From a virus (taxonomy: Duplodnaviria; Heunggongvirae; Uroviricota; Caudoviricetes), in IMG/VR virus record IMGVR_UViG_2778261447_000008, positions 1-13,187 of that record: DNA of 13,187 nucleotides. The stretch is one strand, 5' to 3'. The notes below the pieces were generated by a model. It had not been told where the DNA came from and searched no databases. It worked only from the letters and a program-made list of their open reading frames with translations. The translations under genes and the position numbers were made by a program. Below are positions 1 through 12,656 of the stretch, piece after piece; positions within the stretch are counted from its first letter, which is position 1; each line of letters opens with the position of its first letter.

Positions 1-266
1 CTAGTCTAAAAACTAGTATTAAGACTATCACTTATTTAAGTGATACTGGTTGTCTGGAGATTCAGGGGGCCAGTCTAACCGCCCTGCAATAATCGAAATA
101 TTAGAAACAACCACTACAACTGTGGAGGCGATGATCGCACATCTGAATAGTATCGATAGTATTTACCATGAACCGATTTACAAAGCGGTTTACGAGTGGG
201 CCGTAAAGATTTTCTATCGATGATACTTCGTTATCTTGCTGGCATTCACAATACCTTTACATACTA

Positions 267-893
267 ATGACATGCCAGCACAATACTGTCACTTACAACC
301 GTTCGGATTACCTAGAGAAAAGTATGATTCAGGATTTACTGATCGAAGCAATTAGTCACGATAGGATGCATAAAAAGTTAAATGAACTGAATTGCTACTT
401 CTACAATCGCAAACATGAAACTCAAATACGTGATGAGTTAGTTGTTATTCTCAATCAAATCAGCACACTAACTGCTTTAAGTGAGCATCCAAAACTCGGT
501 ATCGGCGCTGTTGACATATCACTTTATAACCAGTCGATATTAACGTCTGAACATAATGGCAATGTTGCAACCATCGAGATCAAACACCATTACCCAAAGG
601 ATTTACTTTATCGGCAAGTTCAAGAAGACATCATTTCCGATATTTCAAGAGTAATAGTTTCACCAACTACACATTTTATCCATATAATCCAGCAAAGAAC
701 TAGGATTAATACTCCTTCTTTTGGCCAAGTGAAATTCCTTGAACGTGATGCAAGTGATATCAGCACTTATGTGCAATGCCTTGAAGAGCTAAGTTCCTTC
801 CCCAGTATCTTTCATAAAAAAAGTATATGTATTGAGGTACTTGGTGAAATTATGTCGACATATACCTTTAACGTATATTCATTTGACAACTGA
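267..893 (+). CDS. hypothetical protein; AT-rich cargo (moron) gene convergent with the lysis cassette
   Basis: 208-codon ORF in the track. Codon usage is AT-rich, unlike the flanking phage genes. No family recognised. No Shine-Dalgarno before 267; the Met20 ATG at 324 is preceded by a purine-rich stretch (gagaaaag) and may be the true start. Confidence 0.45.
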   Translation: MTCQHNTVTYNRSDYLEKSMIQDLLIEAISHDRMHKKLNELNCYFYNRKHETQIRDELVVILNQISTLTALSEHPKLGIGAVDISLYNQSILTSEHNGNVATIEIKHHYPKDLLYRQVQEDIISDISRVIVSPTTHFIHIIQQRTRINTPSFGQVKFLERDASDISTYVQCLEELSSFPSIFHKKSICIEVLGEIMSTYTFNVYSFDN

Positions 894-914
894 TTAATTT
901 GACAATTTTATTGC

Positions 915-1172: not shown

Positions 1173-1449
1173 CCGCAACAGCCACTTTGATATCTTTCTG
1201 GGTTCTCTGTGACTCCAGTGCGATCTGCTGTTTTGCATGCTGGTTAACCTCTATAACTGTATTGACGATTTGCAGTGATTGCAGGACGTTACGGGTAATG
1301 GCTGTTGCAGATTCAGCATTTTGTACAGCCTCATCAGCACGTTTCTTTTCGTGCTGATATTTGCTGTAGTAGTGGTTGGCAGACCAGATGAAAGAACCGA
1401 TGACAGTAAAGAAGAATGCAGCGATAACCAGCTTATAGCTCAACTTCAT
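1069..1449 (-). CDS. Rz-type inner-membrane spanin (i-spanin)
   Basis: 126 aa with an N-terminal transmembrane helix (LVIAAFFFTVIGSFIW) and a charged, coiled-coil-like periplasmic part. Sits directly downstream of the endolysin and overlaps the Rz1 frame. Confidence 0.7.
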   Translation of the reverse strand: MKLSYKLVIAAFFFTVIGSFIWSANHYYSKYQHEKKRADEAVQNAESATAITRNVLQSLQIVNTVIEVNQHAKQQIALESQRTQKDIKVAVADDGCAARLVPAAAAERLRKYADSLREHSGYNITD

Positions 1450-1909
1450 TTACCACCCCACCAGCCTCTTTAAATCGGGCAATCAGGTCACCGATTTTAT
1501 GTTCATACTGACCGTAACCTGCACCAGGTAACGACGCCCAGATATTGCTGCAACGGTCGATTGCCTGACGAATATCACCGCGATCAATCATCGGTAAAGC
1601 GCCACGCTCTTTAATCTGCTGCAATGCCACAGCATCCTGGCTTTTGGGAGAGAAGTCTTTCAGAGCAAGCTGCTTACGGTAGGCATCCCACCAGCGTGAA
1701 AGAAGCTGGTAACGTCCGGCGGCTGTTGATTTGAGTTTGGGGTTTAGCGTGACAAGTTTGCGAGGGTGATCGGAGTAATCAGTGAACAGTTTGCCACCAA
1801 CAATAACATCATAACCGTGGTTACGTGTCGGTTGTCGCCCGTTATCCGTTCCTTCTGACCAAGCCACCATATCAAGGAAAGCTTTACGCTGGGAATTTAG
1901 TACCTGCAT
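1433..1909 (-). CDS. R: endolysin, lambda R-type lytic transglycosylase
   Basis: The 158 aa translation is near-identical over most of its length to lambda R as I recall it (QRKAFLDM.AWSEGTDNGRQ.TRNHGYDVIVGG, GRYQLLSRWWDAYRKQL, DRCSNIWASLPGAGYGQ). Positioned between holin and Rz. Confidence 0.9.
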   Translation of the reverse strand: MQVLNSQRKAFLDMVAWSEGTDNGRQPTRNHGYDVIVGGKLFTDYSDHPRKLVTLNPKLKSTAAGRYQLLSRWWDAYRKQLALKDFSPKSQDAVALQQIKERGALPMIDRGDIRQAIDRCSNIWASLPGAGYGQYEHKIGDLIARFKEAGGVVNEVEL

Positions 1910-1912
1910 AAA

Positions 1913-2239
1913 TTACTCCTTAGAGCCACCAAATTTGTTACCGATTACTCGCATTGCAGCCCCACGAATAGCATCGACACCGATCAGCCCCACTCCACCA
2001 CCAATGGCAACAGATAGTGATTTAGGCCATCCGACATACTCAAGAGCGGATGCAAAAGTCAGCGTCAGAGCGCCACAGAGTAGAATTTCGAGTGTTTTTC
2101 GCTTCCAGCCACCACCACCGCCAAAATAGGCAATACGTAAACCAGCCATAACAATCGACATAATCACTGCGCCCAGCGGTGTGTCTCCACGCCACCAGCT
2201 CTGGACCAACTCCAACCAGGTATTTGGGTTATGAGGCAT
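1913..2239 (-). CDS. holin (three predicted transmembrane segments)
   Basis: 108 aa with three hydrophobic segments and a charged C-terminus. Stop lies 3 nt upstream of the endolysin start. First gene after a late-leader terminator. Confidence 0.7.
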   Translation of the reverse strand: MPHNPNTWLELVQSWWRGDTPLGAVIMSIVMAGLRIAYFGGGGGWKRKTLEILLCGALTLTFASALEYVGWPKSLSVAIGGGVGLIGVDAIRGAAMRVIGNKFGGSKE

Positions 2240-2377
2240 TTGTAGTTATCTCTCACCTCGCTGATACAGCAGGTGCAAATTGAGGAAACATCATGTACCG
2301 CAAATCAGAAGCGGAAACGTCAAAGAAGCCGAGTCAATGGATAACTGCGGGATAGGCCAGGACCAAGGAATCCCCAG

Positions 2378-2413
2378 ACCCAGAAACGACAAAACCCGCT
2401 CGATGGCGGGTTT
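2378..2413 (-). terminator. intrinsic terminator in the late leader (tR'-like), minus-strand sense
   Basis: Perfect 8-bp stem aaacccgc / gcgggttt (2392-2399 and 2406-2413) with a 6-nt loop. On the minus strand it is followed by ttttgtcgttt; the plus-strand side has only three T. Confidence 0.5.
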
Positions 2414-2420
2414 AAGCTGT

Positions 2421-2530
2421 GTGGCGAAGTGAGCACACTTAACAGATTACGATATTTTTTGCGTACGCGTTAGTGTTTTGATAGAATTTTCAGCCGCATA
2501 AAAATTCATTCTTATAATTCGGGATATATA
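2421..2530. promoter_or_regulatory. intergenic control region: candidate late promoter/qut on the minus strand and candidate cassette promoter on the plus strand
   Basis: Non-coding gap between the terminator hairpin and the cassette start. A perfect TATAAT lies at 2513-2518 (plus), 12 nt before the ATG at 2531, with no good -35. The minus-strand pR'-like hexamers could not be pinned down by eye. Confidence 0.3.
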
Positions 2531-3706
2531 ATGGATATAACTTGTTTAGAATGTGGCAATGTTCTTGACGACCCAACTGTAGCTTGCGATAAATGCGGTG
2601 CCACGCCTCATGTTGTAGTGCTGGGCAAACAATCGTACTTTCCTATTGGTGCTGTAACAGCAAATCTTGAAAAAAATGATTCAAGAGCATTTGATTATCG
2701 ATTAGGTGAAGTTTGGGATCTAAAAAATGAAGTCACATCTGAATTCATAACCAGAATTGAGAAAAAATTTAGCCGAAAAAACAAATTTCATAACTTCCTA
2801 GACTCAGATCACAACCCTTCATCCATTCCTACGATCCTAAAAAAATACATTAATAAAAATAATGAATTCATTGATTTATCTAGAGCTATAATAGAGAAGC
2901 TTAAACATAATGCTAATAACGAATCGAGAGTTGCCCAACTTCAGGGGGGGAGCGTTGTTTTCATCCACTATAAGTCTACCGAACCAGAGGATTTGGGGAA
3001 ACTTCTAATCGTAATGGTTGATAAACAAAGCGCCTATGACTTTGATTCGGATAAGTTGACCCCAACAAGATTAAATCCAATTAATACCGATGCCTTACGG
3101 CAGGCTGCGATGTTCGATTTAACTTTATTCGAAGCCAGTTATCCAGAAAACAAGGGTGACTCATATGTACATTTCTTGCAAGGTAAATCTAAAAGCGATT
3201 TTTTCAAAGACTCATTAGGTTGCCGACATGATTCGGACAATAAAAGAAGCATTCAGCAATTATTCAGTGCTATAGATATTTTTGCTAGTAAAAACTCACT
3301 CGGTCGTGTACTGCGTGATACTATTGACAATGAAGTTAAATCCTTACTGGAAAAAAAATCAAAAGATAAATACGGAAATAAGTCCGTTAAGATAGAGGAT
3401 ATTTCAAAAATAATTGACTCATGCCTGACTGATTCACACAAATGTAAGGGAACGTTTGTCGATTTTGTTAATCTTAATGGTTTCCAGATTGACCCTCAAT
3501 TTGAACCAACTCCTAAAGCAGCTGAAAGCGCGCTTACAATTGAAGTGGCAGATAACGACAATAATTTTAAGTTGAAAATAATGCGTGGAGCTATTGGAGA
3601 CGAAAAGTCAAATAAGCCTGTAATTCTCACTGACAACAAATGCGAAATTGTGATAAAATTGAGTCAGGCAAATTATGATGAACTCAAAAGATATAGAGAC
3701 AGCTAA
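2531..3706 (+). CDS. zinc-ribbon protein with NdpA/YejK (NA37)-like nucleoid-associated-protein region; first gene of AT-rich cargo cassette
   Basis: 391 aa. N-terminal Cys4 motif (CLECGN...CDKCG). The central region carries motifs I recognise from E. coli YejK/NdpA (GGSVVFIHY vs GGFVLFCHY; YVHFLQGKSKSDFFKDSLG vs [22 protein letters not shown]), recalled from memory. Very AT-rich. Confidence 0.6.
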   Translation: MDITCLECGNVLDDPTVACDKCGATPHVVVLGKQSYFPIGAVTANLEKNDSRAFDYRLGEVWDLKNEVTSEFITRIEKKFSRKNKFHNFLDSDHNPSSIPTILKKYINKNNEFIDLSRAIIEKLKHNANNESRVAQLQGGSVVFIHYKSTEPEDLGKLLIVMVDKQSAYDFDSDKLTPTRLNPINTDALRQAAMFDLTLFEASYPENKGDSYVHFLQGKSKSDFFKDSLGCRHDSDNKRSIQQLFSAIDIFASKNSLGRVLRDTIDNEVKSLLEKKSKDKYGNKSVKIEDISKIIDSCLTDSHKCKGTFVDFVNLNGFQIDPQFEPTPKAAESALTIEVADNDNNFKLKIMRGAIGDEKSNKPVILTDNKCEIVIKLSQANYDELKRYRDS

Positions 3707-3708
3707 TA

Positions 3709-4269
3709 ATGACAATTGCTGATGACTTATCAAGATTAGCGCAGATTATTAACGGAGCCTCAAGCAGAGTTGAGGGCTACTACACTGTCATAAGTCTTGA
3801 AGAAAGCATTGTTATTGTAAATAGTTCTGAAATAATTAGACTGTTACAATCTATAGGTTATAAAAAGGCAACAACCTGCATCGAAAATAATGAAATTTGG
3901 CTAGATCGCCAAGCTTCATCTTGGGATGACGCTATAATTTATGAGAATGTTGAGTCTTTTTGGTCTAGAGTAAACACCCAAAACGCTCTTCCGAAAAATT
4001 ATATCATCGGAACGCCGTTAATACTCCCTACTTCTAAGAATGAAAGCATCGAAAAAATCCATATTTTCTTTATGTGGAAAGATATCCTTTCATTAATTGC
4101 TGATCATCATAACAGTGACTGCTCTGTCTTATTTTTCACCAATGAAGACAAAAGTTATACAGTCGAACTCACGCATTTTTTACAATATAGCGAGATTAAT
4201 CGCTTATCGAACTCGTCTCTTAAATATGAAATTATAAAGGAGCTTCTCGACACAATAAAAAATCAATGA
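3709..4269 (+). CDS. hypothetical protein; second gene of cargo cassette
   Basis: 186 aa. The ATG overlaps the tandem stop codons of the upstream gene (taaTAATG), indicating translational coupling. AT-rich; no recognisable family. Confidence 0.55.
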   Translation: MTIADDLSRLAQIINGASSRVEGYYTVISLEESIVIVNSSEIIRLLQSIGYKKATTCIENNEIWLDRQASSWDDAIIYENVESFWSRVNTQNALPKNYIIGTPLILPTSKNESIEKIHIFFMWKDILSLIADHHNSDCSVLFFTNEDKSYTVELTHFLQYSEINRLSNSSLKYEIIKELLDTIKNQ

Positions 4270-4354
4270 TTTACACAAAAGCGAGCGCAAACTCGTTATA
4301 CGCTCAGCCATAAACGAAGTATTTAAAGCAAATGGTACGTTCAATTTCTTTGAC

Positions 4355-4924
4355 TTGCTTAACTCTACTGAACTCGTCAGGAAAAAATATGATGAACTAT
4401 ATGAGATTTACACAAAGAGGTTTTCTGTAAATAAAATTCTTAACGAACTCGATGAGAAAAATCTTGAGTTCACGAGTAAAATTAACGAATTCATATCATC
4501 TAATCAGACAAAAGCATTGACTATTCCCGGTGCATTAATAGCAGCTGGTGGCTTAGTGAAGGCTAATGAAACAACCGAAGCAATATTGATTATCGCAGGA
4601 CTTTGGATGATAAAAAAAGTCAATTACATTTCTATTGAGATATTCAATGAAACATTCGACAACTTACGTTCTCGAGTGGAGTCCGCTTTCGATAAGTATT
4701 TAAAGTTTGAAGAAAATAAAGAAATCAAAGATAATGCAGATAGTATTAAGAGTAGCATTACAGGTTTGATTGATAAAGCTAAAAAAAGGATGAGAACTGT
4801 TAAATATCTCGCATCAGCCATGTTTTATGGAGGCCTTATTTACGTTGGATATAAACAGTTCCCAGTCTTTTTTGAAAAATCGGCAGTAAATCTATTTTAT
4901 TTTTTATGCCATACTATAAGCTAA
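4355..4924 (+). CDS. small predicted membrane protein (two hydrophobic helices); third gene of cargo cassette; start codon uncertain
   Basis: 189-codon frame with hydrophobic segments ALTIPGALIAAGGLV...ILIIAGLWMI and YLASAMFYGGLIYVGY. The track start is TTG with no Shine-Dalgarno and there is no in-frame ATG before residue 84. A strong AGGA-N6-ATG at 4379-4391 is in another frame. The 3' end overlaps the Q 3' end by 21 bp. Confidence 0.45.
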   Translation: MLNSTELVRKKYDELYEIYTKRFSVNKILNELDEKNLEFTSKINEFISSNQTKALTIPGALIAAGGLVKANETTEAILIIAGLWMIKKVNYISIEIFNETFDNLRSRVESAFDKYLKFEENKEIKDNADSIKSSITGLIDKAKKRMRTVKYLASAMFYGGLIYVGYKQFPVFFEKSAVNLFYFLCHTIS

Positions 4925-5275
4925 CATTGCTAAACAGCCGTCAACAAACCCCATTGCAGTTTGCAGTTCCTTCCTAATTGTGCCATCAGAGCATTTTCTC
5001 TTCTTCGCAATAGTGCGTAATGAGATACCGATAACAAAGTGGGCGATGATGAGCTCATATTCCTCTGGTTTATACCTTCTCAACCGAGCCACACAACTGT
5101 CTATCATGATGCCTTCGTCATCATCACACTGAATCCGTGACTTTTTGCCATGAGGTAAAAGTCCCTTGAAACCAGCCGCTATCGGCTGCCAGTCCACTCC
5201 GCTATTGTCTGAAGCAGCCCAAGCTCCCCAACGATCCATTACTTCATACATATCACGCATCAACTTTCTCCACAA
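4904..5275 (-). CDS. Q: late-gene antiterminator Q (QuuD / phage-82-type)
   Basis: 123 aa with the motifs RWGAWAA, IAAGFKGL, KSRIQCDDD, C.ARL and CSDG.I.K.LQ that I recall from E. coli QuuD-type Q proteins. Last gene of the minus-strand early operon, upstream of the lysis genes. Confidence 0.8.
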   Translation of the reverse strand: MWRKLMRDMYEVMDRWGAWAASDNSGVDWQPIAAGFKGLLPHGKKSRIQCDDDEGIMIDSCVARLRRYKPEEYELIIAHFVIGISLRTIAKKRKCSDGTIRKELQTAMGFVDGCLAMLAYSMA

Positions 5276-5277
5276 AA

Positions 5278-6273
5278 TCAGGCCAGCACACCAATTGCCA
5301 GCGCACGATCGATAAAACGAAATATCAACTCCAGCTGGGAGCCATACTTCTCTTCAAATGCCACGGTATCCGCATGCAGCTCGTCGTGATGCTTTCTGCA
5401 CAAAGGCAACACAAAGAGATCATGCGCTTTTGTACCCATTCCCCCCTGACCGTGGCCTATCAGATGGTGGGGATCATCAGCAGGCTTTCCACAACATGCA
5501 CACGGCTGCGTCTTAACCCAGCGCGTGTACTTTTCATTAACCCAGCGGCGACGTTTTGGGCGTAACATAAAAGACTCCGGCGACTCCGGCTCCACTTTCA
5601 GCGCCAGCACCTTTTTCGCTTTATCCTGGATGATGCTGGTGGCAGGAACCGAAGGAACAAGGTCACTTTCCCGGGTGACAGACGGCACAACAGGCTTCGG
5701 TAATCTCAGTGCCTTACGGGCTGCACTTTCCGGTAAGGCATCCGCCAGGTCATTACGAACCAGCCACCAGCATAGTTCCGGCATTGTCACAACGTGACTA
5801 TCATCAAAACCGAGATCCCGACGCACAACAGACAATACCCAGCGGGCACAGTTATCCGTTGCCATTGATTCCAGCCGTTCCGTGAACTGATCGCGCAGCT
5901 GGTTATCGCAGTGCCAGCACAGACGGATTGCGCCCGGAGCGTGTCGCATTGTGGTCATGTTCTCGCTGTGCCAGTCGGAATGAGGCCACTGGCAGCCTTT
6001 TTCACGAAGTAACCAGCTTTCAAGACATTCCACCCCACCAGCACGACGGATCACTGTCTCATTGCGGAACACGGCCCGAACGGCAGGATCATCCGCCAGC
6101 GTTTGTGATGCCGCCGGAACGGCACCACTGGCAAAAGATGAATAACGTTCCGGCTCAGGCTCCAGCAGGACACGCCCCTGCATAAACAGGGGCATCAGCT
6201 CTGAACCTGGTCTGAACAATACGATCCCCATACGCGGGGCAATTTCAGGGGTCAGTAGCGCTCTCACGGTCAC
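5278..6273 (-). CDS. DUF968-family prophage protein with HNH-like Cys/His cluster (YdfU-like)
   Basis: 331 aa; the C-terminus carries CACCGKPADDPHHLIGHGQGG...CRKHHDELH. Typical nin-region position between KilA-N and Q. Tightly packed against both neighbours. Confidence 0.7.
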   Translation of the reverse strand: MTVRALLTPEIAPRMGIVLFRPGSELMPLFMQGRVLLEPEPERYSSFASGAVPAASQTLADDPAVRAVFRNETVIRRAGGVECLESWLLREKGCQWPHSDWHSENMTTMRHAPGAIRLCWHCDNQLRDQFTERLESMATDNCARWVLSVVRRDLGFDDSHVVTMPELCWWLVRNDLADALPESAARKALRLPKPVVPSVTRESDLVPSVPATSIIQDKAKKVLALKVEPESPESFMLRPKRRRWVNEKYTRWVKTQPCACCGKPADDPHHLIGHGQGGMGTKAHDLFVLPLCRKHHDELHADTVAFEEKYGSQLELIFRFIDRALAIGVLA

Positions 6274-12043: not shown

Positions 12044-12250
12044 ATGCACAAAACAGAACCAAAAATCGTCGCGCCCGGATACACAAATGAGGAAATTTAC
12101 GAGTGGATGGCAAAGAAGCTGGCAGCTATAAACCAGCTTCGTGAAGTGCTGTCTTATCGACAGGTAACAATAGACTCCTTAAAAAAACTGGATCAGGAAA
12201 TCACGGTTTTATCACAGGATGTTACTTTAGATATTGTGCAGACAAATTAG
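12044..12250 (+). CDS. small hypothetical protein, first ORF downstream of the pL-like promoter
   Basis: 68 aa from the ATG at 12044, with a strong Shine-Dalgarno GAGGAGG (12031-12037) 6 nt upstream. Not arginine-rich, so not an N-like antiterminator. The track ORF starts 15 nt earlier at a TTG. Confidence 0.55.
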   Translation: MHKTEPKIVAPGYTNEEIYEWMAKKLAAINQLREVLSYRQVTIDSLKKLDQEITVLSQDVTLDIVQTN

Positions 12251-12656
12251 GATCCCATTCATTTTCGTCAAAATCATCAAAGTGATGAATTTGTGATCTC
12301 CAGTCTCGATAATCTAAAAATTTCTGGGCGGTTACGCTTATTTTATCAAGCGTGAGTTCATCCTGAATTGAAAGAAGAAGTTCATCAAATTTCATCTCAT
12401 TAATCTGTTTTGGCATCCAGTGATGCTTCATCAGAATAAGGTGAACCAGAGCTTTTTTCCCATTCAACTGATTATAGGGAGTACCGAATTTCTTCCGGTG
12501 CTCATGTAAGACAAGGTCCAGAAGAGTAAGTAATGTTGCCCTTGATTCAACTTTGCTTATTTCGACTGATGACACTACCCCACTGATTTCAATGCCCCGA
12601 TACTTTCCAACATTTTCACAGTGGGATTTGTACAGCGTATAGATATTACCGGACAT
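12222..12656 (-). CDS. hypothetical protein; AT-rich cargo gene in the immunity region
   Basis: 144-codon ORF with an ATG start, AT-rich. Convergent with the pL-proximal gene, with 29 bp of 3' overlap. No family recognised. Confidence 0.5.
   Translation of the reverse strand: MSGNIYTLYKSHCENVGKYRGIEISGVVSSVEISKVESRATLLTLLDLVLHEHRKKFGTPYNQLNGKKALVHLILMKHHWMPKQINEMKFDELLLSIQDELTLDKISVTAQKFLDYRDWRSQIHHFDDFDENEWDPNLSAQYLK

Follow-up and report, generated by a model that had tools for sequence, protein, structure and literature searches.

We believe, with a probability of about 85%, that positions 2486-2383 on the minus strand of the 13,187-nt stretch analysed here (the window) form the late-control module of this prophage, which would consist of a constitutive PR' promoter, a Q-loading region and the terminator tR'. 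The module stands next to the holin gene and is separated from the gene of the antiterminator Q by a cassette encoded on the opposite strand. From the comparison with related loci, the split between Q and module appears to be a standing, always-occupied cargo slot in this Q clade and not a one-off insertion, and the cassettes look as if they had been swapped between conserved flanks.

The minus strand of the window reads as a lambdoid late junction (Table 1). Q and the holin gene are 2.66 kb apart, and the gap is filled by an AT-rich cassette of plus-strand ORFs with a GC content of 33-38%, against 47-56% in the flanks. An earlier sequence-only reading of this DNA had claimed that the Q stop is parted from the holin by an antisense cassette, which is borne out. 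The last of the plus-strand ORFs (4355..4924) runs convergently into Q, with an overlap of 21 nt at the stop. The genes of Q, holin, endolysin and Rz are all intact ORFs in the window. A second low-GC stretch (33-40%) occupies window 1-900, downstream of Rz/Rz1. Where relatives have, after Rz, genes for an HNH endonuclease and terminase, the window has a different, AT-rich ORF (267..893, +, 208 aa), which is antisense to the late genes and gave no match in an NCBIfam search; this stretch may be another cargo slot. Beyond the repressor region, at 12222-12656 (-), lies the gene of an ECs1072-family phage-associated protein (NCBIfam NF033230), which is unrelated to the question of late control.

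Table 1 Features of the late junction and its cargo in the window, by position.
Feature	Position	Strand	Basis or remark
Endolysin gene	1433..1909	-	follows the holin gene, then Rz/Rz1
Holin S gene (lambda family), first late gene	1913..2239	-	Pfam PF05106 and annotation of relatives
Leader, ~145 nt, terminator to holin start	2240..2382	-	conserved with SfII, SfIV and E. coli relatives
Candidate tR': stem CCCGC/GCGGG plus A-U pairs, 6-nt loop, then UUUUGUCGUUUC	2383..2413	-	terminator scan and MFE fold
Late-control module (PR', presumed Q-loading region, tR')	2383..2486	-	homology to the PR' region of 933W/Sakai, DLP12, SfII, SfIV and cdtI
Conserved block around and after the start, consensus TAAGAGTGGTTACTTCGCCACACAGC	2416..2441	-	fuzzy search and alignments; predicted +1 at 2437 +/- 2
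Predicted PR' core: -35 CTAACG at 2473-2468, -10 TAATCT at 2449-2444	2444..2473	-	column homology with VT2-Sakai
Palindrome GCGTACGC, 8-10 bp, at about -31..-24, overlapping the -35 and reaching just downstream of it	2461..2468	-	clade-specific
Candidate cassette promoter TTGATA-16-AAAAAT, back to back with PR'	2478..2505	+	consensus scan, 9/12 matches
Variable cargo segment filling the Q-to-PR' slot	2487..4932	+	low GC; flanks conserved across loci with unrelated cargo
ORFs between Q and holin	2531..3706, 3709..4269, 4355..4924	+	ORF layout
DS1_1 gene, nucleoid-associated (YejK/NA37-like) anti-phage protein, 391 aa	2531..3706	+	NCBIfam NF053868 DS1_1_antiphage, Pfam NA37
DS1_2 anti-phage protein gene, split into 3709..4269 and 4355..4924	3709..4924	+	NF053869 via intact homologue
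Antiterminator Q gene, 123 aa, Q21/Q933W family	4904..5275	-	Pfam PF06530 Phage_antitermQ
DUF968/HNH protein gene	5278..6273	-	adjoins Q

An alignment of the Q-holin intergenic regions revealed a block of ~100 nt common to the window, SfII, SfIV, an E. coli relative and Stx2a_WGPS2. The block is kept whatever adjoins it, with different cassettes upstream and either the holin gene or the stx region downstream. In the cargo-less phage Stx2_12E129_yecE the same module comes immediately behind the Q stop. The VT2-Sakai copy overlaps the stop of Q and falls on the annotated late promoter, TTTACG-16-TATCAT, together with the first hairpin; alignment to known PR' regions, a check proposed with the sequence-only reading, thus matched window 2486-2383 with the PR'/terminator region of VT2-Sakai/933W. 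Searched by nhmmer with an HMM of the block, the window gave an E-value of 3e-31. We collected 38 Q-bearing loci from phage records and 30 Enterobacterales genomes, one of them cut by a contig end, together with 80 IMG/VR contigs that carry a Q 87-99% identical to that of the window. Exactly one module copy per locus was found in 37 of the 38 loci and in 77 of the 80 IMG/VR loci (the remaining three are cut by contig ends), always downstream of Q.

The position of the start site was taken from the Sakai phage, in which dRNA-seq placed the PR' start 258 nt upstream of the tR' 3' end and the PR' transcript has an RNase E site, GU|AUU, at +173 (Sy et al. 2020, PMC7547250). A start at position 2960 of the VT2-Sakai locus (L006), the A after TAAG that lies 7 nt past TATCAT and aligns with window ~2437, agrees with both distances. 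These internal distances were used because the published coordinate (1,266,203) falls inside Q in NC_002695.2, presumably owing to a different record version. The window's -35 and -10 match the consensus at three of six positions each and were not flagged by the promoter scan; the promoter is therefore called by its homology, from which we infer that PR' is active in this phage. The sequence-only reading had offered as one option a late promoter within 2421-2530, with the cassette lying between Q and that promoter, and this option gains support, as the interval holds the predicted -35, -10 and start.

The +1..+25 block is highly conserved across the modules. A search for a promoter-proximal, -10-like pause in it gave no convincing element and no clear TAnnnT hexamer common to all modules; 933W carries TACATT at +8..+13. 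An inverted repeat GTGG..CCAC at about +3..+18 (window 2419-2434, -) is kept in many modules, with a compensatory change in one locus (GTGA..TCAC in L030) and alternative registers GTC..GAC elsewhere. Its pairing register is inconsistent, and the repeat may act as an RNA hairpin or as a DNA site.

The terminator scan of window 1800-5400 (3.6 kb) found eight sites, against 2.5 +/- 1.6 in shuffled sequences. The list is headed by the hairpin at 2413..2392 (-), which has eight pairs, five of them G-C, a loop of 6 nt and the tail TGTCGTTTCT. It is also present in the MFE fold of the leader. By column homology its stem is at 2410-2395, the U-tract runs from 2394, and hairpin and tract end near +48. 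A hairpin with a U-run that ends at ~+42..+57 occurs at the homologous place in about 21 of the 38 modules, by a crude per-sequence scan whose raw tally of 27 of 38 includes a few hairpins further downstream. The stems differ (for example CCCGCC/GGCGGG, CCUCGC/GCGGGG and CCCUGCCA/UGGCGGGG), and because a hairpin persists across homologous modules although the stem sequence changes, it is more than a chance fold. RNAalifold on a MAFFT alignment of 29 leaders gave a 3-bp GUG/CAC helix alone and did not recover the terminator, as indels throw the hairpins out of register.

Between 2390 and the holin ATG no other terminator-like or promoter-like site was found; in a search for a secondary promoter in the leader (2240-2390), TTGACT and TTGACG were present with no usable -10 at 16-19 nt. 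An intrinsic terminator is hence predicted between PR' and the first late gene, and transcription probably terminates there. The minus-strand terminator and the leader of ~150 nt upstream of the holin, both named in the sequence-only reading, were found again in our scan. In VT2-Sakai a strong terminator-like hairpin lies at +27..+49 of the mapped PR' transcript (L006 2986-3008), yet the published transcript is 258 nt long; polymerase may read through this hairpin, or very short RNAs may have been missed, and which of the two holds bears on termination at the homologous hairpin of the window. The 3' end reported for Sakai is that of a second terminator at +258 and not that of the first hairpin, which is the homolog of the window's; in the window and in DLP12 the first hairpin is the only terminator-like site before the holin.

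Taken as a late-control module, the region would work as follows. PR' would start at ~2437 and be followed by tR' about 25-50 nt after the start, then by the 145-nt leader and the lysis genes. In the lysogen, PR' transcripts would stop at the hairpin. Upon induction, Q made from the early operon 2.4 kb away would act in trans, so that polymerase could read into S-R-Rz and beyond.

Q itself is a member of the family PF06530 (E 3e-47, 159.8 bits against a cutoff of 26). It is 46% identical to the Q of VT2-Sakai/933W and gives a weak phmmer match (E 1e-3) to the solved Q21 structures 6P18/6JNX; Q21 and Q933W were grouped as one family by Yin et al. A short palindrome in the promoter region follows the clade of Q. 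The window's form, GCGTACGC, is carried by all 110 modules with a Q at least 74% identical, whereas the next 42 nt show 40 variants. The corresponding palindrome is GCGGTCCGC in the clade of cdtI, SfIV, 12E129, 716R3 and APSE-2, TACGATCGTA in 933W and TACGTACGTA in DLP12 and ev207. SfIV combines a Q of the second clade with the palindrome of that clade, the two standing apart by 2.5 kb of cargo and IS; it agrees with the window's clade in the holin and in the 3' half of the module. Such a pattern would be expected of a cognate Q-binding element, although linkage could also yield it, and the palindrome appears as a plausible candidate for this role. The site of Q21 consists of two TGAGCA direct repeats at -21 and -13 (PMC6606751). 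The window's palindrome at -31..-24 lies upstream of these positions and also differs in symmetry.

The conserved block could instead serve mainly as a small regulatory RNA, like StxS, or as the site of a regulator other than Q, with the palindrome as the operator of a dimeric repressor. We regard this as unlikely. PR'-to-tR' transcripts do act as sRNA in Stx phages (PMC7547250), and the element is a perfect palindrome that overlaps the -35 region, while Q21 binds direct repeats. The terminated transcript would, however, be just ~45-50 nt here, Rfam searches by gathering threshold and by E-value returned no match, and the palindrome tracks the Q clade even across the 2.5 kb of unrelated cargo in SfIV. 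The sRNA and operator roles are moreover compatible with a PR' role.

It is still less probable that the module is a relic in a defective prophage, with its promoter or Q-loading site inactivated by clustered substitutions. Compared with its nearest relatives (98% identical), the window's module has seven differences within 30 nt (2431-2455, around the -10 and +1..+7). Three of them are in the near-invariant TAAGAGTGGTTAC block, and one is at the base homologous to the mapped +1. The frameshift in the neighbouring DS1_2 gene and the replacement of the endonuclease and terminase genes after Rz by an AT-rich ORF would agree with decay. Against this, the window's module allele is found exactly in 44 E. 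coli records and about 10 IMG/VR contigs, and the substitutions are therefore not private decay. The lysis genes and Q are intact, and the palindrome and the hairpin are unchanged. The window's -10, TAATCT, is that of cdtI. These data suggest that the module is a recombinant or a functionally distinct allele.

In the window, the late-control module starts 2414 nt after the Q stop, and Q is thus not directly upstream of the promoter. The adjoining of Q and PR' is a typical feature and not a functional requirement, since Q acts in trans. For two cargo-less relatives, whose Q proteins are 47% and 59% identical to the window's, the distance between Q stop and module is -25 and -7 nt. In 35 genome and phage loci the module lies 586-2618 nt from the Q stop with an intervening GC content of 32-42%, and in the 77 uncut IMG/VR contigs it lies 871-3735 nt downstream. 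All 112 complete loci of this kind hold cargo between a related Q and the module, 0.6-3.7 kb long, low in GC and almost always antisense. The 3' end of Q was joined in silico to the module, and this artificial junction was compared with 5,426 complete E. coli genomes; parts of it were matched in 408 genomes, and no site covered both parts. Likewise, this Q allele was found within ~715 nt of the module in none of the 5,426 genomes. The comparison with relatives that lack the cassette, proposed with the sequence-only reading, thus held as far as the module stands directly at their Q stop, but these relatives belong to other Q clades and the window's own clade is always filled. In the ancestral layout, Q and its target would have been adjacent, the module beginning at the stop codon of Q or within it; in this clade they would be held apart by the slot, whose AT-rich cargo would have its own promoter and be transcribed toward Q.

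The boundary of the variable segment on the module side is at ~2486. On the other side, the last ~10 codons of Q (4904-4933) are cargo-specific: the tail diverges after GF(V/I)(D/E)G and differs between loci with different cassettes, and the megablast similarity to Stx2a_WGPS2 begins at window 4933. From these alignments, the Q-side boundary appears to be inside the Q coding sequence at ~4933, each cassette apparently bringing its own last few Q codons. The claim that the cassette was inserted precisely between Q and the promoter is consequently right as to position, while a private, precise insertion is contradicted by the permanent occupation of the slot and by the boundary within Q.

That the late promoter lies directly after Q (~4900), with late transcripts running antisense through the whole cassette to the holin, was the other option of the sequence-only reading and is very improbable: although this is the canonical place of PR' in lambda, 933W and 12E129 and one weak minus-strand promoter-like match lies inside the cassette (4634-4607), promoter-like matches in the AT-rich stretch are at chance (12 found, 10.6 expected), the single module copy is on the holin side, and what follows the Q stop is specific to the cargo at every locus, which leaves no room for a conserved promoter there.

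The slot is rich in cargo. Its ORFs fall into 28 blastp families and at least 14 unrelated cassette types in 36 loci, to which the IMG/VR contigs add five size classes. Three cassettes match validated or candidate defence systems, namely DS-1 (in the window and several other loci), a PD-Lambda-5_A-like system with a Dam methylase, and a PDC-M53A-like system in SfII. Weaker hints come from a three-gene set with an MBL fold, a pair of RelA/SpoT-like and NA37-like genes and an SDH Clp-fold protease; most slot cassettes match no known family. Conserved flanks, many unrelated cassettes and some known defence systems, by which a prophage defence hotspot is recognized, are all found here. We found no description of the Q/PR' slot as a defence hotspot in the searchable literature, though it may have been described earlier. 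On its complementary strand, an A-tract upstream of the -35 of PR' (window 2474-2486) resembles a -35 element: it gives TTGATA, TTGTAT, TTGTAA or TTGACA in roughly 19 of the 33 cargo-bearing loci (among L001-L039), whose cassettes are unrelated, and the conserved flank may thereby supply half of a divergent cassette promoter.

The cassette of the window was identified as DS-1 through NCBIfam alone, as PADLOC (2023 models) gave no DS-1 match. DS1_1 scores 451 bits against NF053868 (cutoff 330), and a defensive system with a YejK domain has been validated (PMC13092281). An intact DS1_2 homologue of 404 aa (L004 5296..6510) scores 375 bits against NF053869 (cutoff 315). In a pairwise alignment with this intact relative, the DS1_2 frameshift of the window is one extra A in the A-run at 4257-4262 (six A against five), which could mean that the gene is truly a pseudogene, that the tract is prone to slippage or that the sequencing erred. 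Besides the candidate cassette promoter of Table 1, a perfect TATAAT at 2513-2518 may be read directly as an alternative -10.

The terminator scan found no intrinsic terminator after the Q stop for early rightward Q transcripts, nor a plus-strand terminator that would end cassette transcription before it runs into Q. With no terminator on either side of the junction, convergent transcription is likely in both states. In the lysogen it could lower Q expression, and after induction it could shut the cassette off. In lambda, the antisense RNA paQ damps Q expression. If the same holds here, cassette transcription converging on Q would damp leaky Q in the lysogen, and early transcription past Q after induction would silence the defence cassette and spare the phage from its own immunity; a comparable silencing has been proposed for the antisense Tai in phi80 (PMC11364771). 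The sequence-only reading had tied the cassette to the lytic switch through late transcripts. This route falls away, and any coupling would come from early rightward transcription past Q.

It is conceivable, though we would not count on it, that the junction of Q and its target is a dedicated, always-occupied antisense slot in an entire clade of lambdoid prophages with a Q of the Q933W family across Enterobacterales, whose placement is functional in damping Q, in silencing that spares the phage itself and as a source of defence systems. The slot would then be a compact source of uncharacterised defence systems. By way of the short conserved flanks on its two sides, namely the 3' end of Q and the ~100-nt module, cargo cassettes can be retrieved from enterobacterial genomes. 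In this prophage group the late switch would adjoin the holin and not Q, which matters for the annotation of SfII/SfIV-like, cdtI-like and some Stx prophages, and the position of the switch bears on the prediction of toxin or lysis control. The four palindrome variants each go with one of four Q clades and form a natural series in which the DNA specificity of Q933W-type antiterminators can be tested directly.

Among known systems, 933W/VT2-Sakai shares with the window the Q family PF06530, a homologous promoter block, the start block (TAAGAGTGGTTAC..GCCAC), the first hairpin and the placement of the module directly before the Q-controlled late genes. The 933W module overlaps the Q stop, whereas that of the window is 2.4 kb off behind the antisense cassette. 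The palindrome is TACGATCGTA in 933W and GCGTACGC in the window. In 933W a second terminator at +258 yields the 258-nt StxS RNA, while the window has the first hairpin alone and a different leader.

The split layout of the window is also that of DLP12 in E. coli K-12, in which quuD is followed by the antisense porin gene nmpC, the module (NC_000913.3 577198-577282) and then the lysis genes essD/rrrD/rzpD, essD being the holin gene; nmpC is interrupted by IS5 (L125, NC_000913.3 574529-577282). The split architecture is therefore not new; it is an ordinary one. In the lambda-like phage ev207 (L123) this slot is filled by an antisense porin gene that is intact, and the classic nmpC/lc porin moron of DLP12 and ev207 thus sits, antisense, in the slot between Q and the PR' module. 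A passage in PMC7918800, citing Rueggeberg 2013/2015, reports the DLP12 lysis operon to be under a Q-type antiterminator, and a reporter fragment covering -121 to +650 of the regulatory region of this operon was used there. DLP12 differs in that its cargo is a porin and not a defence system, its Q is of another clade (47% identity) and its palindrome is TACGTACGTA.

Q21 and PR'21 of phage 21 resemble the window in the protein family and in the general scheme predicted for it, with a promoter DNA site, a sigma-dependent pause and a nearby terminator. Q21, with 162 aa, is only weakly similar (E 1e-3) to the window's Q of 123 aa. The TGAGCA direct repeats at -21/-13 were not seen in the window, whose clade-specific element is the palindrome at -31..-24.

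The hotspots of P2/P4 (Rousset 2022) and the phi80 Tai (PMC11364771) share with the window conserved flanks, variable low-GC defence cassettes and an orientation of the cargo against the lytic transcription of the phage. The slot of the window is upstream of the late promoter, between a regulator gene and its DNA target, whereas the phi80 Tai is inside the late operon. Unlike defence genes in a late operon, the cargo of the window would meet any interference from early transcripts and not from late ones.
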